A stretch of 40,757 bases of DNA. Source: a virus. Location: the IMG/VR virus record IMGVR_UViG_3300045988_038276; one strand, 5' to 3'. Under the pieces are notes generated by a model. It did not search any database. It had not been told where the DNA came from and was given only the letters and a program-made list of their open reading frames with translations. The position numbers and the translations under genes are program-made. Numbering within the stretch: position 1 is the first letter of the stretch; each line of letters begins with the position of its first letter. Positions 1 to 40,757 of this stretch are shown in pieces.

Positions 1-141
1 AGGTCGTCCCTGATGTGCTGGTAGGTGTCCATGTCGCCCTGCTCCAGCGCCCGGTACAGAATGGCGTAATAGCGGTTCTTGTTGCCGGTATTGGAGATGT
101 TGTAGATAGCCTTTTCCATCTCATACTGGAGCGGAATGTTG
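1..141. repeat. Terminal overlap, identical to 40617-40757 (circular-contig signature)
   Basis: Read directly. Both copies start aggtcgtccctgatgtgctgg and end ctggagcggaatgttg. Confidence 0.95.
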
Positions 142-3100: not shown

Positions 3101-6100
3101 AAAGCTCCTGGTACACCTGGTCGATGTTGGTGTGGCCCTCGCTGCCCAGGTTCAGCCGTCCGAACTGCCGCTTGCGGAAATCGCCATAGTCCGCGATGTC
3201 CCCGTGGTATTCCTTGCCGTAGATGATCTTGGTCGTCCGCAGGTAGTCCCGCAGGTCGCTGTACGCATCGTACATATCGCTGTCCACGGCCACCGCGTTG
3301 CTCACCAGGGTTTCCGCGATGTCCTCCGCCCGGCGACGGGCCTCGGTGTAGGTCAGCTCATCCTTGCCGTCGTAGCCGCTGGCGATGTAGTCATAGAGGC
3401 TCTGGAGGTCTCCCTGGATGTCCTTCACCGCGATGTCGGCCCCGTAGTTCTGGATAAGCTGTTTCGCGGCGGCGGTCACGGCCTTTTTGTCCGTGGTCAC
3501 GCGCTGGGTCCGCCGGGTCTGGCCCTGCCAGTAGTCCCGGCTCTCCTGGAGCTTCCCGTTTCGGCGCTGGATGGCGATATAGTCCTTCATCTGCTCCCGC
3601 AGCAGCCGGTTTTCCTCCTGCAAGGCGGCAACACTCTTGCTTTCCGTCCCGGCCTTGAGGGAGAAGCGGGCGTCGTCCACGCTGTTGATCTTGGCAAGGC
3701 GGTCCGCGTCGTCTCCGGTCTTGTATTCCAGCATCCGCACACCGGCCTGCTCCAAACCGTCCCGCAGCTTTTGGCTGCTGTCGTCAGGAATGACGGCGGC
3801 CAGCACCTCGTCAAAGCCGACGGCCCGCTGGGGCTTGGCCTCAAAGTAGCCGGTGGGCATTTCCGCCGCCGCCTGGTAGACGGCCTGGATGTCCTGGGCC
3901 GTCTGGCTGCTGATTTTGTACCCCTCCTTGGAGAAGGCCCGCATGATAGCGTCCACCGTCCTCTTTCCCTTGGACGTTTCCATCAGGATGCTGCCGATGA
4001 TGTCGCTCTCGACGAAGGAATTGTCGGAATGAGCCTTGTTTCCCTGCTTGATCTTCGTGATGATGCTGCCGATCTGGTCATCAATGGCCTGGAGCTTTGC
4101 TTCATACTCGGCCCCCTCGTCCATGCCCAGCCGCCCGCTGTCCGCCTTGATCTCCTGGATGCTGCGGTATTCCGGCGTCGCCACGGATTGCAGGGTCTTG
4201 GCGCTTGCGCCCCAGGTGTTGCCGCCGCGCTCCTCCTGGCCCTCCTTCATCGCCTTGACGATGTTCTCCAGGGTGTAGGCATAGTGGAGCTGCGAGAAGC
4301 TGCGGAGATTGCCGGAGGGGGTGTAGGGGTCCTTGCCATTGTAGATGCCCGCCTCGCCCAGCAGGCCGTCCAGCTTCCCGGCAATCCACTCCTCAACGGC
4401 GTGGTCATCCACGGCGCCGCGCAGCGCGTCAGAGGTAGCCATCCGGTCAATTTCGCCCTTGGTCGCGCCGCCGTCCTGGTACATATCCCATGCGTGGTGA
4501 ACGATGTCCTCCAGGGTGAAGATGGAAACGCCGTCCATGGAATTGTCGATGCGGGTCTGCCGTCTTTCGTTGATCTCCGCGTCGGTCCAATGCCTCTTGA
4601 CGGCCATTCTGCGGAGCATGGGTTCGCCCTGTTCCCGGTAGTAGTCCCGGAGAATGTCGCGGATGACCTCGGCATTCTCGCCCAGGGCGTCCTTCACGCT
4701 CTCGCCGGTCTCCAGGTTGGCCTCGATCTCAGCCAGCGTGTTCACGCCCAGGCGGTCAACCACCTTTTGCAGGGTGTCGTTACCGAACTTGTCCCACACC
4801 TTGTCCATCTTCACCGGCTCCAGGCTCTTGCCCTGGTCTGCCAGATAGGCCGCCCGCACCGTGTCTGTGGAGGCCAGCTTCTCCGCCAGTTCTGCCGTGC
4901 TCCTGGTGCTGGTGTCGTCGATGCCCACAGAGCGCAGGGCGGCGCTGTTCCCGAAGATGCCACCGGCCACGGAGACATCCCCGGCAAGCCGGTGTAGCTC
5001 GTGCTCCACCTGGGATGCCTTTTTGCTGTTCACGGGGTAATCTACTCGCGGAGCTGTCGGCGTCCAGGCATCGCCACCGTACACCTTGTTGGCGCGGAAT
5101 AGCTGCGGGTCGATGGTGTCCTTGCTGAACACAAGGGAGATGGGGCCGTACTTGGTGTGCCCGTCCCTGGCTTTTACAATGGCGATGGAGGGCATGGGCA
5201 GGCCGCCCAGCTTGATGGCAGCCAGGATGCTGTTCTCGTCCTTGTTATGCAGGGCCAGCAGCTTGTCCGTCTCCTCCACCGGGGTCTTGAGAGAGAATTT
5301 CGTCTCTTTCTGGTTGTCGGCCTTAAAGCGCTCGTGCAGCTCGCCCAACTCCTTGGCGTATGCGTCGAAGTCGTGGAACACATGGGCCGCAGGACCGTCC
5401 ACGAACATATCTGCTTTGCCCACCGCGATATGCCCGTACATCGTCGCGTTGAACTCGTCATAGAGGCGGGCCGGGTCTGCATTTTCCAGCGTGGTATGCT
5501 GATGCTCTGCCACATGGTTCAGCAGCACACGGGTCATCCCGTCGCTCATATTCAGCATCGTTGGCGTCCGTTCCACAAAGTCCAGGTAAGGCTTGTAGCC
5601 TACCTGCCGCATCACATGAGTGACCTCGTGGGGGGCAAACATCCCCCGATTCTTCTCCGGCAGGGTCTCCCGGAAGAAGATTTGCCCATCGGCAGAGAAC
5701 GCCGGGGTGCTGCCCTTGTTCTTGGCCCATGCCGCATCCGCCACAACAAAGCTCGGCACGCCGTAGTCCACCGCCGTCCGCTGCTCTGCGTAGGCCACGC
5801 TGCCCTTGGCCGGTTCCACCGTGTGGCCCTCCGCCCAGGAGCGCACGGGTTTGGCCCCGAAAGACGGGTTTACTCCTCCGTGTCGTCCAGAAGCAGCAGA
5901 AAGCTCTCTGCGAACTCGTCCATCTTGGCCTTTTCCTTCTCGGTCAGCGCTCTGCCCATATCCTTCTCGGCTGCCTGTGCCAGGTCTGCCGCCAGTTTCG
6001 CTTTCTTGTCCATCCTTGCCGTCCTCCTTCAAAGAATTTCTTGTTGCGGCCATTGTATCATTGCCGCCCTCTCCTTGCAAGGTCTTTGCCTGCCGGGCTG

Positions 6101-8585
6101 CCGCCTCCAAGGCTGCCGTCAGCTTCCCCTCGGCGGTCTGGGCCTTTTTCTTCTCGGCCCCAGTCAGCTTATCAATGAGGGAGCGGATAGCGTCCCGGAC
6201 CTTTTGCAGCAGCGTCCGGTCATCCCGGTGCCGCTCGATGAAGTCATCCAGCACCTTGCCGTCGTCAATGAGGCGGCCCGCATAGTCCGCCGCCACCTCG
6301 TCCATGGCCTGCTCATAGGTCAGCTCCACGCCCTGCGCGGCGTAGCTGTCGATGCGCTTCTGGATGCTGTCCTGCTCCTCCTGTGCCACGATGTCCCGGA
6401 ACGTCCGGTACTCCGTGGGGGCAAGCTCCTGCATCCGGTGGGTCATCTCGTGGCCCACAATAGCCAGTACAGGGTTTTCATTGTTCCGTTCCACCAGCAC
6501 CGTGCTGCCGCTGATCTGGGCATTGGCCGTTCCGCCGCGCACACTGTCCACGAACTGCACCCGCACGCCCAGGGCCTTGGCAACTCTGTTGACCTTGGCC
6601 GCCGTCTCGGCGGTCAGATAAACGCGGCTCTCACCGTTGGCATCCAGAATTGCGTGGCCCTGCTTGTCCTGCAACGGCCTGCCGCTCTCCACAGACTGCT
6701 TCACGAAGTCGTCATACACCAGGCCGCTGTCCGTCCCGGCCACCGGGGCATACTTGGCCGCCTGCTGCTCCCGCTGGAGGGAGAGGGCGGCGTCGTTCTG
6801 CCCGGCGGAATAGGCTGCAAAGCGCTGGGCCTGGGTCAGACTGCCGGAGTAGTCGCTGTCCACCGCCGCCATGTCTGCGCCGTTGATGCCTGCCTCGTAA
6901 TAAGAGGCGAAGCCTGCATAGTATTCGTCAGAGCGAATATTGCCGTCATAGCTGGCCGCCAGGGCCTTGGCCCCGTTTTCGCCCAGGGCGGAGGATGCGT
7001 CCCGCACGCGGCGGATGTCGTGGGCCTGCTGCGCCACCGGGCGCTGCGTGGCCGTCTGCTGCGTCTGCGGCGCGGCGGGGGTAGTTTCCTCCGTATTCAC
7101 GAAAATCTCCGTCTGTGCCCTTGCAAGGGTCTCCACGGCACTTTTCACGGCCTTGCGCTGCTGGCTCTTGGTCATGCCGTCCTGCACCACCTGGCCCGCT
7201 GCCTGCTTCAGGGCAGCCATAGCATCCTGGTCCGCCAGAATACGGTCCGCCGTCTTTCCGCTCACGCTCCCGTTCTGGCTTGCCTGTTCCGCCGCCTGGG
7301 TCAGCAGCTCATTGGCTGCCGTGGTCTGGGGGACCGCTTCTGCCTGCGGGGTTGGGGCGGTGGTCTCCTGCTGGGCGTTGGTTTCGCCCACGTTGTAGTG
7401 GTAGGTGGCCGGGGTGATAACGCCGCCCATCATACCGGAGGTCGCGCCCACAAGGAAATCATACAGAGAGTTCTCCAGCGTTTCCCCGGCGCTGGCTACG
7501 TCCCCGCCATAAATGCGGGGCATCTGCCACTCCATCCAGTCTCCGATGAACTCCTCCAGGCCCTCGCTCACCGCTCCGGCCCCGAAGGTCAGCGCACCGC
7601 CCAGCACACGCTTGCCCGCGTCCGTCTTTGCAAAGCGGTTCACGGCGGAGCGGATGCCCCGCTCCACGGCGTCGTCCAATGCGCCGCCGCCATAGGCATG
7701 GCTGAACGGCAGGGCGATATTGAACATCATCTCTGTAATTACTTCCTTTGCTGCCACGGCCCCGCCGTAAAGTCCCTGCTGCCCCAGAGTGGAGTTCGGG
7801 TTGTCCTGGCGGGCCTGCTGCGTAGCCCCGCCGAACGCACGCATGGCAAAAGCGCCCTTGCTGCCCGGCGTTCCCAGCAGGGCGTTGGCCGCTGTGTCGA
7901 GCGCTGTCTGGGTCATGGAAGCGCCTGCGTCCACCAGCACCTGGCCCACGCCGCCCAGCCCCTCCTTGGCCCGCTCAATGTCTTGGGCAGAGGACTGCTG
8001 GATGTCGTCCGCCAGCTCATAGCTGGCCTGGGTCGCTTTCTGCTGCACCTGCTCGTCCAGCACCTTTGCCATCGCGTCGTATTTCCGCTGCCAGTCGTCG
8101 ATGATGTACTGCTGGCTCTGGATGTCCCGCTCGTTCCAGCTTCCGGGCTTTTCCTTGTTTTCCGCCAGCATGGCGTCCATGTCCAGCTTGGCCCGCTCCA
8201 GGTTGTGGGAATATTCCGCCAGATACTCCCGGTTCTGCGCGTCGCGTCCGCCCTGGCCCATGGCGTAGAAGGTGCTCATGGCGTTGCTGTTGGAGGCCAG
8301 AGACCCCTTGGCCCCGCCTCGGATGGTGTCTCCCAGGCGGGAGAAGAAGCCCCGCTTCTCTGCGGGCTTTTCCGCCGTGGCCTGCGGCACGGCGGGCAGT
8401 TCGGCGTTTTCCCGTTTCAAGGTCAGCCCACCAGCCCGCCAGGTCTGCGTCCTCCCGGCGGAGGCGGTGGGCGGCGCAGTAGCCGGGGCGGTATTCGCCC
8501 CGGTCGTCTGCTTGTTCTCTTCCTGCTTTCTGCTGCCGCTGGTCCAGGTTTTCCCGGTCCCGGTCTGCTTTAAGGTCAAAGCCAT
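1..8585 (-). CDS. Giant virion/polyvalent-type protein: first 2861 codons of a 3063-codon ORF that leaves the window at base 1 and continues 40616->40010
   Basis: ATG 8583-8585 follows AAGGAGGGAGTAGATT. The minus frame (codon low coordinate 0 mod 3) was translated by eye with no stop seen, and no complete minus ORF in that frame is listed. It is absent from the track only because it lacks an in-window stop. Two HExxH motifs: HEMTH at 6438-6452 and HEVTH at 5616-5630. The plus ORFs 393-4997 and 5157-8573 are its antisense shadows. Confidence 0.8.
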   Translation of the reverse strand, partial: MALTLKQTGTGKTWTSGSRKQEENKQTTGANTAPATAPPTASAGRTQTWRAGGLTLKRENAELPAVPQATAEKPAEKRGFFSRLGDTIRGGAKGSLASNSNAMSTFYAMGQGGRDAQNREYLAEYSHNLERAKLDMDAMLAENKEKPGSWNERDIQSQQYIIDDWQRKYDAMAKVLDEQVQQKATQASYELADDIQQSSAQDIERAKEGLGGVGQVLVDAGASMTQTALDTAANALLGTPGSKGAFAMRAFGGATQQARQDNPNSTLGQQGLYGGAVAAKEVITEMMFNIALPFSHAYGGGALDDAVERGIRSAVNRFAKTDAGKRVLGGALTFGAGAVSEGLEEFIGDWMEWQMPRIYGGDVASAGETLENSLYDFLVGATSGMMGGVITPATYHYNVGETNAQQETTAPTPQAEAVPQTTAANELLTQAAEQASQNGSVSGKTADRILADQDAMAALKQAAGQVVQDGMTKSQQRKAVKSAVETLARAQTEIFVNTEETTPAAPQTQQTATQRPVAQQAHDIRRVRDASSALGENGAKALAASYDGNIRSDEYYAGFASYYEAGINGADMAAVDSDYSGSLTQAQRFAAYSAGQNDAALSLQREQQAAKYAPVAGTDSGLVYDDFVKQSVESGRPLQDKQGHAILDANGESRVYLTAETAAKVNRVAKALGVRVQFVDSVRGGTANAQISGSTVLVERNNENPVLAIVGHEMTHRMQELAPTEYRTFRDIVAQEEQDSIQKRIDSYAAQGVELTYEQAMDEVAADYAGRLIDDGKVLDDFIERHRDDRTLLQKVRDAIRSLIDKLTGAEKKKAQTAEGKLTAALEAAARQAKTLQGEGGNDTMAATRNSLKEDGKDGQESETGGRPGTGSREGYGQSADREGKGQDGRVRRELSAASGRHGGVNPSFGAKPVRSWAEGHTVEPAKGSVAYAEQRTAVDYGVPSFVVADAAWAKNKGSTPAFSADGQIFFRETLPEKNRGMFAPHEVTHVMRQVGYKPYLDFVERTPTMLNMSDGMTRVLLNHVAEHQHTTLENADPARLYDEFNATMYGHIAVGKADMFVDGPAAHVFHDFDAYAKELGELHERFKADNQKETKFSLKTPVEETDKLLALHNKDENSILAAIKLGGLPMPSIAIVKARDGHTKYGPISLVFSKDTIDPQLFRANKVYGGDAWTPTAPRVDYPVNSKKASQVEHELHRLAGDVSVAGGIFGNSAALRSVGIDDTSTRSTAELAEKLASTDTVRAAYLADQGKSLEPVKMDKVWDKFGNDTLQKVVDRLGVNTLAEIEANLETGESVKDALGENAEVIRDILRDYYREQGEPMLRRMAVKRHWTDAEINERRQTRIDNSMDGVSIFTLEDIVHHAWDMYQDGGATKGEIDRMATSDALRGAVDDHAVEEWIAGKLDGLLGEAGIYNGKDPYTPSGNLRSFSQLHYAYTLENIVKAMKEGQEERGGNTWGASAKTLQSVATPEYRSIQEIKADSGRLGMDEGAEYEAKLQAIDDQIGSIITKIKQGNKAHSDNSFVESDIIGSILMETSKGKRTVDAIMRAFSKEGYKISSQTAQDIQAVYQAAAEMPTGYFEAKPQRAVGFDEVLAAVIPDDSSQKLRDGLEQAGVRMLEYKTGDDADRLAKINSVDDARFSLKAGTESKSVAALQEENRLLREQMKDYIAIQRRNGKLQESRDYWQGQTRRTQRVTTDKKAVTAAAKQLIQNYGADIAVKDIQGDLQSLYDYIASGYDGKDELTYTEARRRAEDIAETLVSNAVAVDSDMYDAYSDLRDYLRTTKIIYGKEYHGDIADYGDFRKRQFGRLNLGSEGHTNIDQVYQELSSRWPEFFSEQEQTHPTDQLLHIVEVLDGISEINEYNPFSRYMDQAVTGAANEIMETFFDLPQTRKTFADRQALKLENAKAKGREQVQKVREQYTTRLAELREQNRQRVQNAIAKEREARERQMGALKDRYAAKDAAGRERRAARELRAKITRHASALSQKLLRPSDQHHIPEAMRGSVAAMLESINQESQYTLDENGKRVKDGSGTPTKRTEAFRALKEQYAKIVAEGGDMVIDPSLLGSDADGIKGGFDAVIAMKDTKLADMSVAQLQTVWQVVKAVEHSVNTAGKVLSKAKYARTADWAQALSIGTSSRRAKNSLTRNHALIDLETPYTFFSHYGEAGKAVYRMLRDAQDQQQLMVDHVAEEVRKIVDPKTVKKLEATTHTFTTERGEKLTLSTAQVMELYELVKRKQAHDHLLKGGVVQPEIKTSQIRRGTDSIRLTEGDLVNITGTLTPEQVKIADGLQGLTRGVLADYGNKASMEAYGYKKFTESDYWPIKSAKEGLHSNIEKGRNNTRSIKNIGMAKTTMPHASNALDLAGIFTTFANHASDMTDYASWLCTMEDINRLFNYQFRDEEGNPTGKSIKGLLDRVGGPGSQEYWNRLMEDIQNGINAPGDSPMWDIAGKTIGGFKGAAVGANIRVVIQQPTAFFRAAAVLDPQDMARGLARGVTRGSGWKKALQYSPIAMRKDAGGFDISSPYKMTETLFDNRTNVRKLNDALSAPAGAADAVTWGKLWNACEWATAREHQGLTKGSEAFYRQTAKLFAEVIDQTQVVDGVLQRSNIMRSSNAVVKQATSFMGEPIMSLNLLMRAYDQVRYEQNSQKRGKAIKTMGRAATALVVTNVVNALAQSLIDAMRDDDEDKKYWERFRTAFTGVTGDEETPWEKAWNAITEGNVGSNMNPLGQIPFVKDALSIMQGYDVSRTEMEIVSDLIQAGQTAIQSADGQGKRTGAYALKGLLAAGAKMFGIPASNLTRDMWGLARSAAVETDNIPLQYEMEKAIYNISNTGNKNRYYAILYRALEQGDMDTYQHIRDD
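5870..6013 (-). CDS. Embedded 47-codon alternative-frame ORF (MDKKAKLAADLAQAAEKDMGRALTEKEKAKMDEFAESFLLLLDDTEE)
   Basis: ATG 6011-6013 sits 8 nt after GAAGGAGGA, and the stop TAA is at 5870-5872. G/C-ending codons dominate as in the rest of the genome, whereas the giant-ORF frame turns A/T-ending and low-complexity here. Confidence 0.3.
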   Translation of the reverse strand: MDKKAKLAADLAQAAEKDMGRALTEKEKAKMDEFAESFLLLLDDTEE

Positions 8586-8599
8586 AATCTACTCCCTCC

Positions 8600-12829: not shown

Positions 12830-13531
12830 TTACACCGCGCGGACCCACAGGCCGTTGTTCTTCACATACAGCCCGCCGTCGTTGCCCGGCACGCTCTCAA
12901 CCGTGTAGCATCCATCGCTGTCTGTGCTGTCAGATACAACGATAGAAGATTTAAGATTAAAAGCGGGGCGCGGCGCGAAGTTGGCGTAGTACACGCGGTC
13001 GCGGCTCACGGTGCCGTCGGTGTAGATGCTGCACGCGTTGCTGTCATTCGAGTACGGGGAGCGCAGGCCCCAGCCGACGGCGGTCGCCGTCTCGTCCAGA
13101 TAGGCGATGCGCTTTGCGTTGTCGGAGAAATAGCTGAACGCCTTGCCCTCCGTCTGCCAGCCGCTCACGCCCGCCTCCGTGCAGGAGAGGGCAAAGCCCT
13201 TGCGGTAGATCGTGTGCAGCGTCGCCACCTGGTTGCCCTCCGCCACCACAATGGGGACGGGGACCAGGCACTCCCGGATTTTCTCGTCCAGTTTCAGCGG
13301 CCAGATGCCGTCACAGAAGTTGTCCAGCAGGCAGCCGATATATCGGTTCTTGTAGCTGCTGTCGTAGCTGGCCTCCCATTGGCGCTCATTAAAGGTGTCC
13401 TTGCGGATAAGGGTCACGCCCGTGCCGGTGCCGTAGTGGTCATTGTCCAGCTTGATGAACTTGGTGGGCTTGCTGTTTTCCGCCAGCTTCACCAGGCTGC
13501 CGTTTGCCAGATTGGAAAGTAACTGTCCCAT
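12830..13531 (-). CDS. DGR target protein 1 (likely receptor-binding protein), variable region near the C-terminus
   Basis: ORF track. RBS AAAGGAGAA. The C-terminal sequence GWGLRSPYSNDSNACSIYTDGTVSRDRVYYANFAPRPA is encoded by VR1. Confidence 0.85.
   Translation of the reverse strand: MGQLLSNLANGSLVKLAENSKPTKFIKLDNDHYGTGTGVTLIRKDTFNERQWEASYDSSYKNRYIGCLLDNFCDGIWPLKLDEKIRECLVPVPIVVAEGNQVATLHTIYRKGFALSCTEAGVSGWQTEGKAFSYFSDNAKRIAYLDETATAVGWGLRSPYSNDSNACSIYTDGTVSRDRVYYANFAPRPAFNLKSSIVVSDSTDSDGCYTVESVPGNDGGLYVKNNGLWVRAV
12962..13082 (-). repeat. DGR variable region VR1
   Basis: A 121-nt alignment to the TR (14925-15045) has 14 mismatches. Every one is at a T of the TR on the given strand, which is an A on the coding strand. 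Confidence 0.9.
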
Positions 13532-14696
13532 ATCGTTTTGTTCTCCTTTCGTCAGGTCCGGGCCGGGCAGCGGGGATGCCCGCCGCCCGCCTGGCCTCGT
13601 CTGCGCGGTCCAGAGCCATCAACAACCTGGACCGCATTTCTCTGCGGAGCTGCTTTGTGTCGCCGTGTTTGGCGTGTGCCTCCCAGGCGGTAAAGCTCTC
13701 CATGATTTTCTCCCGCGACACCTCGCCCGCCGCGTACTGCTTCTCCCACAGCCGGATGCGTCGTTTCATCCGCTTGATGGAGGAGTAGCGCAGCTTGCTG
13801 ACCACCTGGCCCGTCCGGGTCAGATAGGTGTGGAAGCCGCAGAAGTCGATGCCGTTTTGCAAGGGGAAGATGTTGGTCTTGTCGTTCAGCTCCAGGCCCA
13901 GCTTGGCAAATTCAAGCCTTGCAAGGCGCAGAGCCTCAACCGCTGTCGCCTTATCCGGGCAGATCACATACCAGTCGTCCATATACATCCCTGCCAGCGG
14001 CAGGTGCAGCTTCTCACCCACATAGTGCATGAAGGAGCTGACGTAGAACACCGCGTAGATGTGGCTCGTCTGGTGTCCCAGGGCCAGGCCCTCGTCCACG
14101 GCGTCGATGTATCGCCACATCAGCGCCCGGATGTCCGGGTCGGGAAACCGGGGTTCCAGCGCGGCCTTGAGCCGCCGGTGGTCGATGCTCTGGAAGAAGT
14201 GGCGGATGTCGCCCTTGATGACCCAGCCCTCGGCGTAGTCCCATTCCTCCATGGGCCGGTGGGGCAGACCGGCGGCCTTGCGTGCTGCCTCGTCCGCGCC
14301 CTTCCGCCGCAGGAAATAGGTCCTCATGTGCTGTTTCAGCATCTCCAGCCCGTAATGGGTCCCCTTGCCGTACTGGGCCGCGTAGGTGTTCAGCGTGAAG
14401 CTCCGGGCCAGCTCGTCGTAGACGATGTAATCCGTGAGCGCGTGCTGCACCACCTTGTCCCGGAACGTCGGGGCCTGGATAAGCCGCTTCTTGGGTTCGT
14501 AGATATAGAACGCGTCCAGCGGGTCCGGCTGGTGCGTCCCTTGCAAAAGCGATTTTGAGAGTATCAGCAGCTCCTCGATTGCGCTGTACTCAAAGGGTGC
14601 CGTACTCTTTTTGCCCCTCTTGCACCGTCTGGCCCGGTGGTAGGCCGTCCATAGGGTGTCAAAGGAGCACAGTTCCTGATAGGTCATATCACACAT
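13440..14696 (-). CDS. DGR-type reverse transcriptase
   Basis: YMDD catalytic motif. LGHQTSH occupies the position of the DGR [IVL]GxxxSQ motif. It sits next to the TR and Avd. The likely start is MTYQEL at 14687. The 3' end overlaps the target-1 start by 92 nt. Confidence 0.9.
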   Translation of the reverse strand: MCDMTYQELCSFDTLWTAYHRARRCKRGKKSTAPFEYSAIEELLILSKSLLQGTHQPDPLDAFYIYEPKKRLIQAPTFRDKVVQHALTDYIVYDELARSFTLNTYAAQYGKGTHYGLEMLKQHMRTYFLRRKGADEAARKAAGLPHRPMEEWDYAEGWVIKGDIRHFFQSIDHRRLKAALEPRFPDPDIRALMWRYIDAVDEGLALGHQTSHIYAVFYVSSFMHYVGEKLHLPLAGMYMDDWYVICPDKATAVEALRLARLEFAKLGLELNDKTNIFPLQNGIDFCGFHTYLTRTGQVVSKLRYSSIKRMKRRIRLWEKQYAAGEVSREKIMESFTAWEAHAKHGDTKQLRREMRSRLLMALDRADEARRAAGIPAARPGPDERRTKRYGTVTFQSGKRQPGEAGGKQQAHQVHQAGQ

Positions 14697-14924
14697 CCTT
14701 GCTTGGTTTTCGGATGGTGGAGCGCAGGTCCGGCATCGCTGATAGCGGCCAGTATCTCCCTCCGCCGGAGGTGTCCGGGGCTTTCCCCGGTAGCGAGCCT
14801 GGCAGCGTCGGTGCCATGTGTTTATCCCCCGTGTTCATGTCCACGGACGACGGGATATAGCCTCCTTTGATGATGGGCCTCTGCTTTCGCCGCAAGGGCT
14901 ACTTGTACGCGGTAATTCCATCAG

Positions 14925-15045
14925 AGCGGGGCGCGGCGCGAAGTTGGCGTTGTACACGTTGTTGTTGTTCACGGTGCCGTCGGTGTTGATGTTGTACGCG
15001 TTGTTGTCATTCGAGTTCGGGGAGCGCAGGCCCCAGTTGACGGCG
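14925..15045 (-). repeat. DGR template repeat (TR)
   Basis: The coding-strand sense reads AVNWGLRSPNSNDNNAYNINTDGTVNNNNVYNANFAPRPA, with 12 AAC codons. It matches VR1 and VR2 except at adenines. About 230 nt of non-coding spacer separate it from the RT. Confidence 0.9.
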
Positions 15046-15074
15046 CGAACAGGCTATACCCCAATGAAAGGCAG

Positions 15075-15497
15075 CTATCGCCGCCGAACATCCTCTCTCG
15101 CCTGGGCAGCGCGGCTCCGGTCCTTCTCGTACCAGGCGGCGCACATATAGCGCACCGTCATCACCGCCTTGCTCCAGGTCGCGGCCTTTTGGCCGCTCAC
15201 GCCGGGGTATTGCTTGCTTTCTGCCATCCGCAGTATCTTCCGCTCCAGCTTCTTGCACGCGCAAAGGGCCTCCCGCTGCATCGCCAGCCGCTCCGCCGGT
15301 CTCTCCCGCAGGTCAATGAGGTTTGCGCCCTCAATGCACGAGCAGATGGTCTCTGCACCGTTCATCAGGGCCGTTCCGGTGGTGTAGCGGTATTTCTTGG
15401 GGATGACCTTCTCATTGGCGCAGGCGTCTGCCCTGTAAAGCCACATATCAGCCGCCTTGTTGCCCAGCTTGAAGTCATCGGTCTGTCTGTCAGTCAT
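15075..15497 (-). CDS. avd: Accessory variability determinant (Avd), four-helix-bundle family
   Basis: It lies immediately upstream of the TR. The PKKYRYTTG motif resembles Avd and 23S-rRNA-IVS four-helix-bundle proteins. The start MTDRQ at 15497 overlaps the upstream stop (ATGACTGA). Confidence 0.75.
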   Translation of the reverse strand: MTDRQTDDFKLGNKAADMWLYRADACANEKVIPKKYRYTTGTALMNGAETICSCIEGANLIDLRERPAERLAMQREALCACKKLERKILRMAESKQYPGVSGQKAATWSKAVMTVRYMCAAWYEKDRSRAAQAREDVRRR

Positions 15498-15723
15498 CGG
15501 GGCACCCTCGCTTTCGTGCTGCATCCAGCAGCTCGTCGCAGCCCTCTGCCTCCATCACCAGGTCCGGCCCCAGCCGGATGGTCACGGTCGCGCCGGTAGG
15601 GGAGCGCCCAGTCAGCACCAGACTGTCCTCCCGGCATATCCGGCATGGCTGCTCCAGCTCTGCCAGGAGGTTGGAGATCAGACAGGAAGCCTCCGCCCAG
15701 TCCTTACACGCTGCCCGCCGCAT
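15490..15723 (-). CDS. Hypothetical 77-aa protein translationally coupled to avd
   Basis: Track ORF 15490-15750. An internal Met is preferred as the start. The stop overlaps the avd ATG. Confidence 0.4.
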   Translation of the reverse strand: MRRAACKDWAEASCLISNLLAELEQPCRICREDSLVLTGRSPTGATVTIRLGPDLVMEAEGCDELLDAARKRGCPDD

Positions 15724-16174: not shown

Positions 16175-16735
16175 TTATCCGATATTGATGTAAACGTCGC
16201 CGTTGGCCCCCAGGCTGGAGGCGGGAGCGCCGTTGCCGAAGTAGATGTTGCGGAAGCCCTTGGTGCTGCCGCTGGTGGGCGACACGCCGGACACGCCGCC
16301 GGTGAACGCGCCGCCCGTCTTGGGCATTTTCTGGTCTGCATAGGCAAAAATGTCCTGGGCTTTGCCCTTGGGGTCATAGACCGCCTTGGTCATGTCGCCG
16401 GGGTTTACAGCGTCCGCGCCCTTGGGGATGCCGAAGTCGAAGATGGGGGCAGCGTCCGGGCTTCCGGCCCGCCGCTTCACCGTGGCCGCACTTCCGGCGG
16501 CCAGCGTGGTGGTCGTCCCCACCTGGATGTTAGGGGTAGAGCCGTCAGCACCGGCGGGTCCCTGTGCGCCGGTCGCGCCGGTCGCGCCCTTGGCCCCGGT
16601 CTCACCCTGGGGTCCCTGGATGCCCTGCTCTCCCTTCGGGCCTTGAGCGCCGGTCGCACCCTGCGGGCCTCTTGCGCCCTGCACGCCCTGGGGTCCCTGC
16701 GGACCCACAACCTTGCCCAGATCAATGGTAGGCAT
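16175..16735 (-). CDS. Collagen-like (G-X-Y repeat) fibre protein, 186 aa
   Basis: About 18 uninterrupted GXY triplets ([28 protein letters not shown]...). RBS GGAAGGAGGAA. Confidence 0.75.
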
Positions 16736-16753
16736 AGATGGTTCCTCCTTCCG

Positions 16754-17770
16754 TCAGATGTTTAGGCATAGATGCCCTGCATCGTTGATGTAATAGTCCG
16801 GGGCCTCGTTGCCGGTGTAGGTACACAGCAGATGCCCCTCGTCCGTCACGCTGAAATTGACCATGCCAGCCGTCTGCACGGCCACGCCGTCGATGCCGCG
16901 CGGTCCTTGCGGCCCCTGCACGCCCTGGGGTCCTTCCGGTCCCGTGGGTCCAACCGGGCCAGCAGCGCCTTGAACGCCCTGGGGTCCCTGGATGCCTTGG
17001 ATGCCCTGGACGCCGCGCTCGCCGGTCAGTCCGCGCTCGCCCTGGATGCCCTGCTTGCCGGTCTTGCCCTGGGGTCCCTCTGCGCCCTGTTCTCCCTGGT
17101 CGCCCTTGGAGGCGATAAGCAGCCAGTGGGCACCCTCCACGCCTCCGGCCACGTCCAGCTCCGGGGCCACGCCCTTGCACGCTGCCTTGCAGATGTAGGA
17201 GCTGCCCAGCCTGCTCACCTTCTGGAGGGGCAGATAGGTCTTTGCGCTGTCATAGGCTTCCCACACCTTCACGGCCTCCTCGGCCTGTTCCAGCGCCTCG
17301 ATGGCGTTTCCCACCAGGGTGCTCACCTGGGGTACAATGCCGTCGATCTGGGTCTGGAGCTGCTGCGCCTGGGTGGGCGTCGGCTCTTTCGGCGTGGTGT
17401 AGGCGTCGTTCGGCTTCACCAGCAGATGGTCCGTCACCGTGATGGCAACGGCGGTGGGGTCGCTCTCCCGGAAGCCCTCAATGGTAAAGCTGCACCAGCC
17501 CTCCAGGGCCAGCGGCTCCGCCGGAATGGCCGTGTCGAAGGTCAGCGGGTCCTTCTTTGCCACCAGGTCCTCCACGCTGTTGTACAGCAGCACCGCCACG
17601 GGGCTTTCGCCCAGGGCGTTGCGCCAGATGATGCGCTTGGAGAACGCCTCCCAGTCATCGCTCATAACGATGTGCAGTCCGGTCACATTGGCCTCGCCCT
17701 GCACGCCCGCGTTCTTGCTGTCCTTGCGGACAAATTCGCCGGTCACGGTCACATTGATGGTCCTGTCCAT
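16754..17770 (-). CDS. Tail fibre/baseplate-upper-like protein with a collagen-like repeat, 338 aa
   Basis: GXY run GDQGEQGAEGPQGKTGKQGIQGERGLTGERG... The N-terminus resembles BppU-type fibre anchors (weak). RBS AAAGGAGG. Confidence 0.65.
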   Translation of the reverse strand: MDRTINVTVTGEFVRKDSKNAGVQGEANVTGLHIVMSDDWEAFSKRIIWRNALGESPVAVLLYNSVEDLVAKKDPLTFDTAIPAEPLALEGWCSFTIEGFRESDPTAVAITVTDHLLVKPNDAYTTPKEPTPTQAQQLQTQIDGIVPQVSTLVGNAIEALEQAEEAVKVWEAYDSAKTYLPLQKVSRLGSSYICKAACKGVAPELDVAGGVEGAHWLLIASKGDQGEQGAEGPQGKTGKQGIQGERGLTGERGVQGIQGIQGPQGVQGAAGPVGPTGPEGPQGVQGPQGPRGIDGVAVQTAGMVNFSVTDEGHLLCTYTGNEAPDYYINDAGHLCLNI

Positions 17771-34131: not shown

Positions 34132-34764
34132 CTATCCCTCATACGGGCTTTCCAGGGACCAGTCCCAGGTCTGCCCGCCTTGCCATTCCGTGGTGAAGTA
34201 GTTGTGTGCGCCGTCTCCGGTGAAGTACAGGTACTCCTTCGGCAGCACCCGGCCCACGCTGCCCACGCACTCCTTCTCGGCCATCCAGCGGGCCAGCACA
34301 TCCTCCACCAGGGCCAGGATGTCCGGGTCCACCGGGTTGCTGGGGTCGTAGCCGTAGAACTGGCAGGGCTGGGTCGTGATGCCCTCCACCGTGTCGGCCC
34401 AGAAGCGGTCCCCGCTGTCGTAGCGGTTCAACACGCACCAGATCGTGGCCGCCTGTTCCGTGGTGGAGCAGCCCCGTGCCTCGCCCCACACCATCTTTAC
34501 CAGGGCTACCTTGGACGCCTCCATCGGGTCGATGGCCTCCTGGTCCTCAAACTCCAGCGTGATGGGTTCCAGCGTGGGTGTCTCCGCCGGAAGCACCGTT
34601 GCCGTCACCGGCACGGTGGCCTCTGGTGTCTCCGGCTCTTGTGGACGCCCGCTCCAGGCGAACGCCGCAGCCACGGCCAGAAGGGCCAGCGCCAGGCAGG
34701 TGGCTCTCTGCATCGCGGCCCTGCGGCGGCGCTGCTGCTGCCTCCGCCGTTCAGTCCGGGTCAT
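34132..34764 (-). CDS. SleB-family cell-wall hydrolase with an N-terminal membrane anchor
   Basis: VWGEARGCSTTEQAATIWCVLNR...QPCQFYGY matches the Hydrolase_2 (SleB) pattern. The transmembrane segment is CLALALLAVAAAFAW. The start MTRTERRR overlaps the upstream gene by 14 nt. Confidence 0.65.
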   Translation of the reverse strand: MTRTERRRQQQRRRRAAMQRATCLALALLAVAAAFAWSGRPQEPETPEATVPVTATVLPAETPTLEPITLEFEDQEAIDPMEASKVALVKMVWGEARGCSTTEQAATIWCVLNRYDSGDRFWADTVEGITTQPCQFYGYDPSNPVDPDILALVEDVLARWMAEKECVGSVGRVLPKEYLYFTGDGAHNYFTTEWQGGQTWDWSLESPYEG

Positions 34765-35401
34765 AGGTGCTTCTCCTGCGGCGGTACAGCTCGTCGATAA
34801 GGTCCGTGTCGCTGTAATCGGCCAGCGCCTTGCCCTCGTCCTCGGTCTCAACCGATACAAGGATAGAGGATTTCAGATACAAAGCGGGGCGCGGCGCGAA
34901 GTAGGCGAGGAACACGTTGAAGCGGTCCACGGTGCCGTCGGCGACGACGCTGTACGCGTAGTAGTCATTCGAGGCCGGGGAGCTGTTGGTTGTCCAGCCT
35001 GTTGCCAGCCAATAGGGCTTGGAGGTCAGCGGCAGGATGCTGCGGTGCTTGCGGTACTCGTCAATGGTCAGCGCCCGCACGACGGCCAGGGGCTTGCCGT
35101 AGTCCGTCATGCCGTCCATGGTGGTCAGGTCGATGGGCCGCTCCACTACGGCGGAGAAGATGGCCGGGTGCTTGTCCCGCAGCCAGCGCTCCACGGTTTT
35201 GGAAAGCAGGCTGCCCGCGTAGTTGTTGTGGTCCTCACGCTCGGCGTCGTCATCCTCGAACTGGCAGCACTCCGGCAGCGTGTCGGCGGCCACCGCAAAG
35301 GCGGCGTCCAGGTCGTCCTCCAGCTTCACAAACTCCACTCCGTCGAGGGTGAAGCGTTCGCCCCGACGTACCTGTGCCAGGGCCAGGTCCTTCATTTTCA
35401 T
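34751..35401 (-). CDS. DGR target protein 2 (remote paralogue of target 1)
   Basis: The C-terminal sequence SSPASNDYYAYSVVADGTVDRFNVFLAYFAPRPA is encoded by VR2. The 43-aa post-VR tail is the same length as in target 1. Confidence 0.8.
   Translation of the reverse strand: MKMKDLALAQVRRGERFTLDGVEFVKLEDDLDAAFAVAADTLPECCQFEDDDAEREDHNNYAGSLLSKTVERWLRDKHPAIFSAVVERPIDLTTMDGMTDYGKPLAVVRALTIDEYRKHRSILPLTSKPYWLATGWTTNSSPASNDYYAYSVVADGTVDRFNVFLAYFAPRPALYLKSSILVSVETEDEGKALADYSDTDLIDELYRRRRSTYDPD
34883..34983 (-). repeat. DGR variable region VR2
   Basis: 101 nt align to TR 14925-15025 with 18 mismatches, all at TR adenines. Confidence 0.9.
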
Positions 35402-35422: not shown

Positions 35423-35686
35423 TTACTGGCCGCTCTCGGCGGTCGTGGTGGTCCGCCGGTTGCCCCGGCGGCGGATTGCCTCTTGAAACGTCCTTTGAGC
35501 CAGGCGGGGGTCATACTCCGGGCGCTGGTTCTTGTCCAGCTTGCCCGTGTCGCCTCGTCGCAGCTCCTCATAGATCGTTGCGGGGTGGCATCCGATTTTG
35601 TAGGCGATGTCCAGCACGCGGGCTTCCTCCTGGTACATCTTTGCGATTTTCTTTCGGTCCTGGAAATCCAGGTACTTGCAGGCCAT
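35423..35686 (-). CDS. Stand-alone IS30-type N-terminal HTH protein, about 87 aa
   Basis: YLDFQDRKKIAKMYQEEARVLDIAYKIGCHPATIYEELRRG parallels HLTWNDRLTIEKMLREGYSKPQIARYLGVHHSTVYDECRRG of the adjacent transposase. The start MACKY follows AAAGGGGGTG. Confidence 0.55.
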   Translation of the reverse strand: MACKYLDFQDRKKIAKMYQEEARVLDIAYKIGCHPATIYEELRRGDTGKLDKNQRPEYDPRLAQRTFQEAIRRRGNRRTTTTAESGQ

Positions 35687-35818: not shown

Positions 35819-36859
35819 TTATAGGCTTGCAAGAAACACGTTGAAAAGTTCCGCAGAGGTGTGCCAGTCCAGGATTAACCGTGGGTAATTATTTATCCAG
35901 TCCTGGACCCGGCGCACCTCTTTTTGTGTTACCTTACGGAAGTCCGTGCCCTTGGGGAAAAACCACCGGATAAGCTGGTTCTGCTTCTCGTTGCTGCCGC
36001 GCTCTCCGGGGGACCTGGGGTGGCAGTAGTAGACGTGGGTGCGCTTCTCTCCGGGCAGCAGACAGGAGCGCTCCATGCCCTTGCAATCTGCAAATTCGCT
36101 CCCGTTGTCCACGGTGATGCTCTTGAACACCTGGCGGAACATAGCGGTCCCCATGCGGCGCTCCAGTCGGTCCAGAACGCCCACGACGCTGGCGGCGGTG
36201 TCGTCGTGCATCTTGCGGATGATCTCGTCCCGCGTCACGCGTCCGGTGAGGACGCACAGGGCGGCCTTGGTGCCCTTCTTACCCACTACGCTGTCCATCT
36301 CCCAGTGGCCCGGCTCCTCCCGGTTGTTGATGTGCTCCGGGCGATGCTCGATGCTGTCCCCTCTGGGGGCTTTCGCTGCTTTCACGCGGTTGTAGGTCCG
36401 TTTCTGGTCGCTCTTGTAGCGCAGCTCCTTGTTGGTCAGGGGCCACAAGTCCCCGTTCTCGATGTACTTATACACAGTCTGACGGCATAATGTGCAGGAG
36501 AAGGTGGTCTCCGGCGTTTTGCCCAGCATGGAGCAGGCAGCAGACGGGGAGTACCCCTCGGAGATGGTTTTGACCAGCCACCGGGCCAGCCGGTGGTCTT
36601 TGCCTATTTTCAGAGGCTTTTCCATGTTCTTCTTGCGGTCCAGGTGGTAGTCCTTGGCGACATCGGCGGAGTAGGAGATATAGGTGGTCAGGTCGCTACG
36701 TTTCAGCTCCACCGCGCCCCTCCGGCACTCGTCGTAGACCGTGCTGTGATGCACGCCCAGATAGCGGGCGATCTGCGGCTTGCTGTACCCCTCGCGGAGC
36801 ATTTTTTCAATGGTCAATCTGTCGTTCCAGGTCAAGTGTGCGCCCTTATATCTCGGCAT
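35819..36859 (-). mobile_element. IS30-family DDE transposase gene (element ends not defined)
   Basis: N-terminal HTH. The DDE-region motifs HWEMDSV, ITVDNGSEF and ERGSNEKQNQLIRWFFPKG are IS30-like. The start MPRYKG is at 36859. Confidence 0.8.
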
Positions 36860-36899
36860 AGGAAAACCTCCATTTGCAATACTTTTGCATAGCATTTGT

Positions 36900-40009: not shown

Positions 40010-40757
40010 TTACCATTCGCTGGTGTAGACGGTCCCCCAGAGGAAAGCCCGCTGCTCGTCGGTCAGGCCGGAGAAGTCCTCCAGCCATTCCCGCACATGG
40101 TCGCTCTTGGCCTCGCCCTTCACGGTCTTGCCGTCTGCGTCCTTGGTCCCTTCCATCTCGTTGTAGGCGGTGTGGAACAGGACGTACTCCCAGGGTTCGA
40201 TGCCCTGGGCCTCTGCGTCGTCGGCCTGGGCCATCCACTTGGTGCCGACCTCGTACTGTCCGTCGGAATGGTCCGCCAGGGCGCTCTTGTCGGCCAGATC
40301 ATAGGCCGCCTTGAGCACCTTGTCGCGGGTCTCGTCGTCCATTCCCCGGAAAATAGGGCTGCTCGTCAGGTCGTCTGCCATGCTGCGGTAGTCGCTGGCC
40401 CGCTGGTCGGAGTATGCCTGGTAGGCGCTGCTGCCCAGGTCGTCCGCGCCGAAGGTTTCCTCCTTCTCCTTGGCCGGGGCGTATTTGTCCCGGCTGCCGA
40501 TAAGGTCCCGCGCCCTCTGGGGCAGGGTGTAGTCCGGGTCCTTCTCAACGGCCTTGTTGTAGCGGCTCCGCATGGCGCTGTCGATGCTTGCGCCGTCCAC
40601 GCCCATGCTGTTCATCAGGTCGTCCCTGATGTGCTGGTAGGTGTCCATGTCGCCCTGCTCCAGCGCCCGGTACAGAATGGCGTAATAGCGGTTCTTGTTG
40701 CCGGTATTGGAGATGTTGTAGATAGCCTTTTCCATCTCATACTGGAGCGGAATGTTG
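40010..40757 (-). CDS. C-terminal end of the giant 3063-codon ORF; the last 141 nt duplicate bases 1-141
   Basis: Track ORF 40010-40735 begins at an internal Met (MEKAIYNISNTG). The same frame stays open upstream across the junction into 1-8585. Confidence 0.8.
   Translation of the reverse strand, partial: NIPLQYEMEKAIYNISNTGNKNRYYAILYRALEQGDMDTYQHIRDDLMNSMGVDGASIDSAMRSRYNKAVEKDPDYTLPQRARDLIGSRDKYAPAKEKEETFGADDLGSSAYQAYSDQRASDYRSMADDLTSSPIFRGMDDETRDKVLKAAYDLADKSALADHSDGQYEVGTKWMAQADDAEAQGIEPWEYVLFHTAYNEMEGTKDADGKTVKGEAKSDHVREWLEDFSGLTDEQRAFLWGTVYTSEW
40617..40757. repeat. Terminal overlap, identical to 1-141
   Basis: Read directly. Confidence 0.95.

Follow-up and report, generated by a model that had tools for sequence, protein, structure and literature searches.

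A complete two-target retroelement in a gut phage genome

The window analysed here, a stretch of 40,757 nucleotides (nt) of viral DNA held as IMG/VR record IMGVR_UViG_3300045988_038276, almost certainly harbors a complete, currently active diversity-generating retroelement (DGR) with two target genes; its carrier is a temperate phage with a 40.6-kb genome that infects gut Oscillospiraceae. Every gene in the window lies on the minus strand, and the coding orientation is therefore taken as the reverse complement of the given strand. In this orientation the cassette reads Avd, template repeat (TR), structured spacer, reverse transcriptase (RT) and target gene 1, with target gene 2 in a remote location. 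A phage-borne DGR with Avd, TR, RT and targets bearing variable repeats (VRs) had been proposed in a first-pass annotation of this DNA, and both the anatomy of the element and its variation across populations bear out that proposal.

Differences between the repeats are confined to template adenines

The TR (14925..15045, minus strand, 121 nt) lies between avd and the RT gene, as in all relatives, and VR1 (12962..13082, minus strand, 121 nt) is located at the C-terminal end of the DUF6273 domain of target 1. A repeat finder run on the window identified the two as a direct repeat of 121 nt, without gaps and with 88% identity. Pairwise alignment reproduced the 121-nt match and the 14 mismatches reported in the first-pass annotation, together with their placement: all 14 fall at adenines of the coding-strand TR (9 A>G, 3 A>T and 2 A>C). 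Adenines account for 33 of the 121 TR nt, and the probability that 14 of 14 VR1 mismatches would fall on them by chance is 1.1e-9. The third repeat invoked by the annotation is present as VR2 (34883..34983, minus strand), which spans 101 nt within the target 2 open reading frame (ORF; 35401..34751) and, in an ungapped scan of the whole window, pairs with TR positions 21-121 only. All 18 mismatches between VR2 and the TR likewise map to TR adenines (P = 5.5e-12), so that neither VR contains the substitutions at non-adenine TR positions that had been named in advance as evidence against a DGR. No third VR was found in the window, either with the ungapped scan or by counting occurrences of the GC-rich block that closes the repeats.

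In the target reading frame the TR contains exactly 12 AAC codons, the number given in the first-pass annotation, and the corresponding VR1 codons encode, in order, G, Y, S, N, S, Y, S, R, D, R, Y and N. A stop codon is unreachable by mutation from any TR codon in this frame. Both VRs lie inside ORFs, and the combination used to recognize DGRs, TR/VR differences at adenines and a VR in coding sequence, is thus found for each of them. The theoretical repertoire amounts to ~10^19 peptides for VR1 and ~10^18 for VR2.

Variable repeats differ among near-identical phages from different gut samples

Natural activity of the element was assessed on two sets of related loci. The first comprises 18 IMG/VR contigs with a full-length RT 91-100% identical to that of the window, 16 of them at 97% identity or above; the second was obtained by scanning for the TR 3' flank, with a degenerate base at a single-nucleotide polymorphism (SNP) private to the window, and comprises 19 IMG/VR loci and at least 80 human-gut metagenome loci. 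Alignment of 16 cassettes revealed a background of ~2-3 variable sites per 50 nt, with a sharp hotspot at VR1. Within this hotspot, 30 of the 33 columns facing a TR adenine are variable, versus 6 of the 88 remaining columns, and the VR1 alleles from the IMG/VR contigs (RT identity 91-100%) are all distinct (16/16).

The same pattern holds in the larger set, where 48 in-register TR/VR1 pairs among the matches listed, from near-identical copies, yielded 47 distinct VR1 alleles. TR-VR1 mismatches in these listed pairs map to TR adenines in 776 of 788 cases (98.5%), with 12 elsewhere, and the fates of TR adenines in VR1 are A in 781 instances, G in 403, T in 282 and C in 91. VR2 is equally diverse, with 18 alleles in 18 sequences (17 near-identical contigs included) and, on reading the alignment, changes at TR-adenine positions. 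Homology searches with target 1 returned at least 120 separate 90%-identity clusters, 88-95% identical to the query, and 20 sampled clusters differ almost only in VR-encoded residues. Together, the VR1 and VR2 patterns constitute strong between-sample evidence of ongoing mutagenic retrohoming.

Changes in VR1 length were also observed in near-identical phages, with a 3-nt gain (locus L012), a 3-nt loss (L010) and a 20-nt loss (L005); the last is a frameshift and may be an assembly artefact of a heterogeneous region. A second hotspot in target 1 (13300-13399, residues ~75-82) was considered as an additional VR and rejected: the patch has just two allelic states (DGIWPLKL versus DLMWPQML), and its variation is not adenine-specific and hence not produced by the DGR.

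A shared GC block is followed by flanks specific to the variable repeats

The three repeats end in the same 18-nt block, TTCGCGCCGCGCCCCGCT, which occurs exactly three times in the window against an expectation of 0.01. The first-pass annotation had described a GC-only block closing all three repeats; the block is indeed present in each, but its composition is 83% G+C. At the TR 3' end the block occupies 14925-14942 and is followed by a flank of the IMH* type (IMH, initiation of mutagenic homing). Past the block both VRs read TT(T/G)(A/T)ATCT(T/G)AAATC(T/C)TCTATC(G/C)TTGTATC, while the TR reads the unrelated CTGATGGAATTACC, in agreement with the AAATC(T/C)TCTATC flank that had been reported as common to both VRs and lacking from the TR.

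The IMH-type flank of VR1 (12933..12961, minus strand) is a 29-nt AT-rich segment directly after the GC block, TTTAATCTTAAATCTTCTATCGTTGTATC, without counterpart in the TR and with a GC content of 24%, versus 62% for the genome. Across 10 loci with RTs 20-33% different, its DNA is essentially invariant, third codon positions included, and the sequence just downstream is free to vary. VR2 has its own IMH-type flank in the same register (34854-34882, minus strand). A shared GC block with a VR-specific flank that differs in the TR corresponds to a predicted IMH versus IMH* directionality element.

Downstream of VR1, an imperfect hairpin was predicted by DNA folding (12914..12943, minus strand), with an inner TCTG/CAGA stem that starts 28 nt past the GC block, and VR2 presents a TCGGT-TGAG-ACCGA hairpin in the same register (34842-34855, minus strand). 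Relatives have a hairpin in this register with other stems (TCCT/AGGA, TCCG/CGGA and CGTC/GACG) and a few compensatory changes. Statistical support for the hairpin is weak; its z-scores on folding do not reach significance, and it lies within coding sequence.

One template informs both targets and is itself polymorphic

The seventh base from the 3' end of the GC block (14931 in the TR, 12968 in VR1 and 34889 in VR2) carries a C/T polymorphism that is concordant between TR and VR1 in 61 of 62 pairs. The VR2 allele matches the TR of the same contigs, and all three copies of the window have C, the rarer allele. This concordance indicates that a single TR informs both VRs and that the 3' crossover takes place within the final few bases of the GC block. 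Marker-transfer experiments on phage BPP-1, reportedly by Doulatov in 2004 and Guo in 2008, are said to agree with this placement.

The TR is polymorphic as well. In 90 in-register TR copies among the matches listed (drawn from loci L064 and L103-L200), polymorphic sites comprise 26 of the 33 adenines versus 5 of the 88 other positions (Fisher P = 2.6e-15), and 33 of these 90 listed copies present at least one change at an adenine site. The distinct adenine-site variants are mostly A>T (20 A>T, 7 A>G and 5 A>C). Where TR position 52 has changed, VR1 carries the TR allele in 11 of 11 cases (T in nine, C in two), versus C in 13, T in 11, A in 10 and G in 4 non-carriers. At position 38 the VR1 base equals the TR allele in all seven carriers, compared to A in 19, G in 18, T in 3 and C in 2 non-carriers, and in one contig the CTC codon of a variant TR appears in VR1 and VR2 alike. 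TRs that have lost adenines thus serve as genuine templates, and their variant bases are faithfully copied.

Multi-site TR variants are tract-like, lying in the 5' half in locus L154 and in the 3' part in L147 and L189. Such tracts could reflect gene conversion from VR to TR or partial homing into the TR, and in low-coverage contigs they could also be assembly chimeras. As a tentative reading, on which we lean slightly to the side of doubt, the TR would be no invariant master: the activity of the DGR itself would remove TR adenines, either because mutagenized cDNA occasionally homes to the TR or through gene conversion of the TR by a VR. With the altered TR as template, the element would progressively reprogram and narrow its own mutational library. 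An AAC>TAC change restricts a codon to Y, C, S or F, and selection may act on the resulting library. We found no description of adenine-biased TR polymorphism in the literature searched. The evolving TR is the one lead from this element that merits following.

The spacer between TR and RT is a conserved structured RNA

The TR and the RT gene are separated by a spacer (14697..14924, minus strand) that was present as described in the first-pass annotation, with a length of 228 rather than 230 nt. It is a conserved, structured RNA by comparative analysis and presumably the Sp/priming part of the DGR RNA. RNAalifold analysis of an alignment of 12 relatives yielded a consensus structure of 36 pairs, 16 of them with compensatory changes, in which 96.4% of cells are paired. 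None of 500 shuffles reached the observed covariation, and slid controls gave 0-4 covarying pairs versus the 16 observed. One helix joins the TR 3' end (CCCCG..CTGATGG) to the spacer segment CCATCATCAAAGGAGG. The alignment contains long invariant blocks, and the single-sequence fold is no better than shuffles (z = 0.43), the structure being visible by comparison only.

Rfam searches of the window and of 12 related loci returned nothing at the gathering threshold. A sub-threshold match to RT-2 (RF03077) covers the spacer over the whole model at 13.9 bits (E ~0.5), which is not significant and is kept as a lead only. No relative reached threshold either. The private SNP of the window lies in this region at position 14889, where the window reads ACCGCGTAC and all other copies examined read ACCGTGTAC, and it falls in an unpaired part of the predicted RNA.

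The cassette encodes Avd and a reverse transcriptase of the DGR clade

The accessory variability determinant gene, avd (15075..15524, minus strand), matches PHROG 3206, 'Avd protein of DGR' (E = 4.7e-32). Because a GAGGGTG sequence is found 5 nt upstream of position 15497, the true start is probably located there, giving a product of 140 aa. The product has no Pfam match and no match among PDB sequences. A confident AlphaFold2 (AF2) model built on 39 homologues (predicted local distance difference test, pLDDT, 89.8) has four long helices, and its best Foldseek matches are 2gsc and 2rld of the four-helix 23S-IVS/S23 family, with template-modelling (TM) scores of 0.83-0.87 and probability 1.0. 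Against BPP-1 Avd (4dwl and 8ub7) the TM scores are 0.66-0.68 and the probabilities 0.96-0.99. Foldseek E-values are weak (0.015-0.6), as is usual for helical bundles; the PHROG match and the modelled fold together agree with the Avd-like four-helix-bundle gene of the first-pass annotation. Three Avd homologues (P0131, P0140 and P0153) are longer than Avd and match DUF6273 (PF19789); these overlong metagenome gene calls of the lineage probably read through into the TR.

The RT gene (13440..14696, minus strand) matches PHROG 1423 (E = 3e-117) and Pfam RVT_1, and its ORF (14696..13440) contains both the intact YMDD motif and the motif 4 sequence LGHQTSH that had been noted on first reading. Relatives align from residue 4 and an AAGGA sequence lies upstream, for which reasons the true start is probably the conserved ATG at 14687, the fourth codon. 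The best PDB match is the BPP-1 RT, bRT (8ub7_A), over the full length (E = 1.1e-25), followed by a group II RT (E = 3.9e-8) and a retron-type RT (E = 2e-4). With bRT leading the PDB matches by at least 17 orders of magnitude, the RT next to the TR is placed by sequence comparison within the DGR clade, and not outside it, the result that had been named beforehand as counting against a DGR. Relative to bRT it has an insertion of ~35 aa between residues 125 and 160.

Motif 4 of the RT aligns with IGSLTSQ of bRT, retaining L, G and S and replacing Q with H. All relatives whose RT is at least 51% identical have the S-H form without exception, and the S-Q form is found in a clade with 44% RT identity, in FP_Toutatis (LGYQTSQ) and in nd4 (IGNQSSQ). 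The last two residues of the signature vary in 15 of 155 elements in DiGReF (2012), with SH among the natural variants, and the bRT substitution Q187P leaves adenine misincorporation unchanged, the residue that matters being the first of the motif (I181), whose equivalent in the window RT is Leu. Since the functional features that define DGRs are present, the missing Q is no argument against DGR membership, and [ILV]GxxxSQ is a diagnostic signature rather than a functional requirement.

Mechanism and alternative explanations

If the element works as BPP-1 does, transcription within the late operon would cover avd, TR, spacer and RT, and a complex of RT and Avd would bind the structured TR-spacer RNA. 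Synthesis of cDNA would then be primed from the spacer, with the TR copied under misincorporation at adenines, and the cDNA would replace the VRs, homing being set by the GC block and by the VR-specific flank and hairpin.

Several observations weigh against a complete and currently active two-target DGR, and the first three of them would also fit a decayed or inactive relic in which the TR/VR pattern records past activity only. The evidence for activity is drawn from differences between samples, in near-identical copies rather than in the window's own copy; the RT formally departs from the [I/V/L]GxxxSQ signature, with SH instead of SQ in motif 4; and a promoter scan of the cassette coding strand detected no sigma-70-like promoter dedicated to it. 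A relic is nonetheless very unlikely, because the RT and Avd ORFs are intact, because 16 full-length IMG/VR contigs with an RT of 97-100% identity nevertheless have different VR1 and VR2 alleles, and because SH is fixed across the sub-clade that shows this variation, SH variants and bRT Q187P both being compatible with adenine mutagenesis. Other points bear on the proposed mechanism and on the targets. Spacer priming and the role of the hairpin are carried over from BPP-1, with weak support for the hairpin itself; the AF2 model of target 1 has a pLDDT of 30.7 (21-sequence alignment) and lends no support to a lectin fold; and for both targets that fold is derived from the Pfam DUF6273 match and from published models of family members.

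Still less credible, to the point of being negligible, is an origin of the RT in a retron, a group II intron or a DRT/Abi defence system, with the three repeats as ordinary paralogous segments. The best NCBIfam matches of the RT are indeed a group II intron RT (73.8 bits) and Drt3a, and PADLOC returned weak DRT/UG matches; the NCBIfam scores (15-74 bits), however, fall far below cut-offs of 200-390, the best PADLOC match is a generic RT model only, the leading full-length PDB match is bRT, Avd adjoins the gene, and Rfam scans revealed no group II intron or retron RNA. Paralogy, moreover, accounts neither for mismatches confined to one base nor for a non-coding TR copy. We attach just as little weight to the idea that VR hypervariability arose without reverse transcription, from allele recombination and diversifying selection on a receptor-binding loop. 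Ordinary allelic exchange does occur in target 1, as the two-state patch at 13300-13399 attests, but it would not place 98.5% of TR/VR1 differences at TR adenines, nor fix in the cognate VR1 those sites at which a variant TR has lost its adenine, nor lead two unlinked genes 20 kb apart to vary at the same TR-defined positions and to share the GC-block allele of the TR. A DGR that is complete and active in present-day phages remains the explanation that accommodates these data.

Two DUF6273 targets in distinct genomic settings

Target gene 1 (12830..13531, minus strand) encodes a 233-aa protein that matches Pfam DUF6273 (E = 1.5e-33) and PHROG 9958 (E = 9.5e-45). Its ORF overlaps the 3' end of the RT gene by 92 nt (13440-13531), an overlap that was recovered in the ORFs as it had been annotated. 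Target gene 2 (34751..35401, minus strand), separated from the TR by ~20 kb of the 40.6-kb circle, encodes a 216-aa protein matching PHROG 9958 (E = 1.4e-60); in BLASTP comparisons the two products are 55% identical over the VR and its flank (E = 3e-14). Target 2 is a remote paralogue of target 1, both with DUF6273, and the diversified surface corresponds to the C-terminal part of the putative lectin-like DUF6273 domain. Profile searches of the two targets against PDB sequences returned chance matches only, and the retrievable homologues of target 1 are all more than 88% identical outside the VR.

Tail and fibre genes lie around target 1, whose most likely role is that of a receptor-binding or adhesion module. 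Just upstream of the cassette, two proteins of 186 and 338 aa with collagen triple-helix repeats and Gly-X-Y runs are encoded at 16175-17770 (minus strand); presumably tail fibres, these neighbours agree with receptor binding by target 1. The second target gene lies in an early/regulatory region, just downstream of a DDE (rve) IS30-like transposase/integrase gene (36895..35819, minus strand). A promoter-like TTGACA, a stem-loop accompanied by a run of Ts and a small helix-turn-helix (HTH) gene (35737/35686..35424) follow the transposase, and the HTH product resembles the transposase's own N-terminal HTH (PHROG 11420). Given the promoter-like site, stem-loop and HTH gene beside it, separate regulation of target 2 is possible, and the gene may belong to a separately regulated unit that is possibly expressed in lysogeny.

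The phage genome in the window is complete and circularly permuted; it measures 40,616 bp, and its ends overlap by 141 nt. Among its products are terminase, HNH, portal and major head proteins and the collagen-repeat fibre proteins, together with RecT, a DNA methyltransferase, an amidase and the DDE (rve) transposase/integrase. A giant gene on the minus strand (at least 2,862 aa) crosses the circle junction and runs off the window start (1-8588 and 40010-40757), and the ORF at 40735..40010 corresponds to the C-terminal portion of PHROG 22978, a family model of 3,513 positions. Plus-strand ORFs at 393-4997 and 5157-8573 were rejected as genes, as they have no Pfam or PHROG match and lie antisense to this long ORF.

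The isolate 'Oscillospiraceae bacterium CM710M_45' (JAWZUP010000003.1) encodes, on a contig of 452 kb, an RT 100% identical to that of the window; a relative with 78% RT identity is found in Flavonifractor sp. An100. Searches for a close deposited phage genome returned none, the best match having 68% identity over 45% of the structural module. The phage is temperate and infects gut Oscillospiraceae; it is prevalent in the human gut, with matches in at least 120 metagenome contigs, and it also occurs as a prophage in a cultured Oscillospiraceae isolate.

Comparison with known DGRs

The TR-RT-VR order is kept in every relative holding both repeats, down to 44% RT identity, the TR preceding the RT by ~160-350 nt and the VR following the RT stop at ~360 nt, and 60 related loci share this architecture. 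A remote, 5'-shortened VR2 of 101-105 nt, ~20 kb away, is present in relatives with 78%, 73% and 56% RT identity, with mismatches at adenines in 15/15, 11/12 and 11/11 cases, respectively. In the survey of Wu et al. 2018, which distinguishes 48 architectures, an avd-TR-RT core is the commonest, Architecture B1, and target positions are variable. The first-pass annotation had singled out the avd-TR-RT-target order as atypical; that view does not hold, since the order is conserved in the clade, in FP_Toutatis and in nd4 and falls within the published Architecture B1. Gene order, SH motif, overlap of the RT and target ORFs, DUF6273 targets and two-target layout are all either the rule in this clade or already published, and as a DGR the element adds little that is new. 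Its value is that of an unusually clean natural data set, in which natural markers reveal that a single TR supplies both targets across a distance of 20 kb, that transfer reaches as close as 6 nt to the GC-block end, and that TRs with lost adenines are real templates. This makes it a practical model for DGR template evolution and for the purpose of a second DUF6273 target outside the structural module.

Compared to BPP-1 (mtd-avd-TR-brt), the element shares the avd-TR-spacer-RT core, an RT homologous to bRT over its full length and an Avd four-helix bundle. Adenine-specific transfer from TR to VR is likewise common to both, as are a GC-rich block in TR and VR alike, marker transfer into this block and, beyond it, a flank found at the VR only (IMH versus IMH*); a candidate hairpin also lies ~25 nt past the block, as in BPP-1. 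The gene order departs from that of BPP-1 in the target position alone: where the BPP-1 target precedes avd, target 1 of the window lies downstream of the RT with a 92-nt overlap. There are also two targets, one of them 20 kb off, which are small DUF6273 proteins and not an Mtd tail-fibre tip, and the RT differs in its motif 4 (SH, not SQ) and its ~35-aa insertion, as does the candidate hairpin, which is shorter and weaker.

Closer parallels are found in phages of gut bacteria. The Faecalibacterium phage FP_Toutatis, which is in culture, presents the same order, with Avd (gp79), TR (gp80), RT (gp81) and target (gp82), mismatches at adenines in 15 of 15 cases, a DUF6273 target with its VR at the domain end and a TR 72% identical at the DNA level. 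It differs in having no collinear match in the DGR region beyond the TR, an adjacent target of 419 aa ('Hoc-like') and the S-Q form of the RT motif. Its non-coding TR (gp80; locus L001, 5029-5181) is annotated as a 50-aa 'DUF6273 domain-containing protein'. The hosts of these Faecalibacterium phages are, like that of the window, gut Oscillospiraceae-type Clostridia. Two VRs occur in each of the Faecalibacterium prophages Lelie and CP11, one in a large DUF6273 protein and the other in a small one (Cornuault 2018; Gulyaeva 2024, PMC11792537), whereas both targets of the window are small (233 and 216 aa). In the gut-virome phage nd4 the order is again Avd, TR, RT and target, with 16 of 17 mismatches at adenines, and the RT of nd4/nd12 is ~72% identical to that of the window at the DNA level over part of the gene. 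These phages also have two targets, 'tentaclin' and a small globular DUF6273-only protein modelled as C-type-lectin-like (PMC10743442). Their target 1, however, consists of an N-terminal DUF6273 followed by Ig-like domains, which the adjacent target of the window does not have, and the nd4 RT carries the motif IGNQSSQ in place of LGHQTSH.

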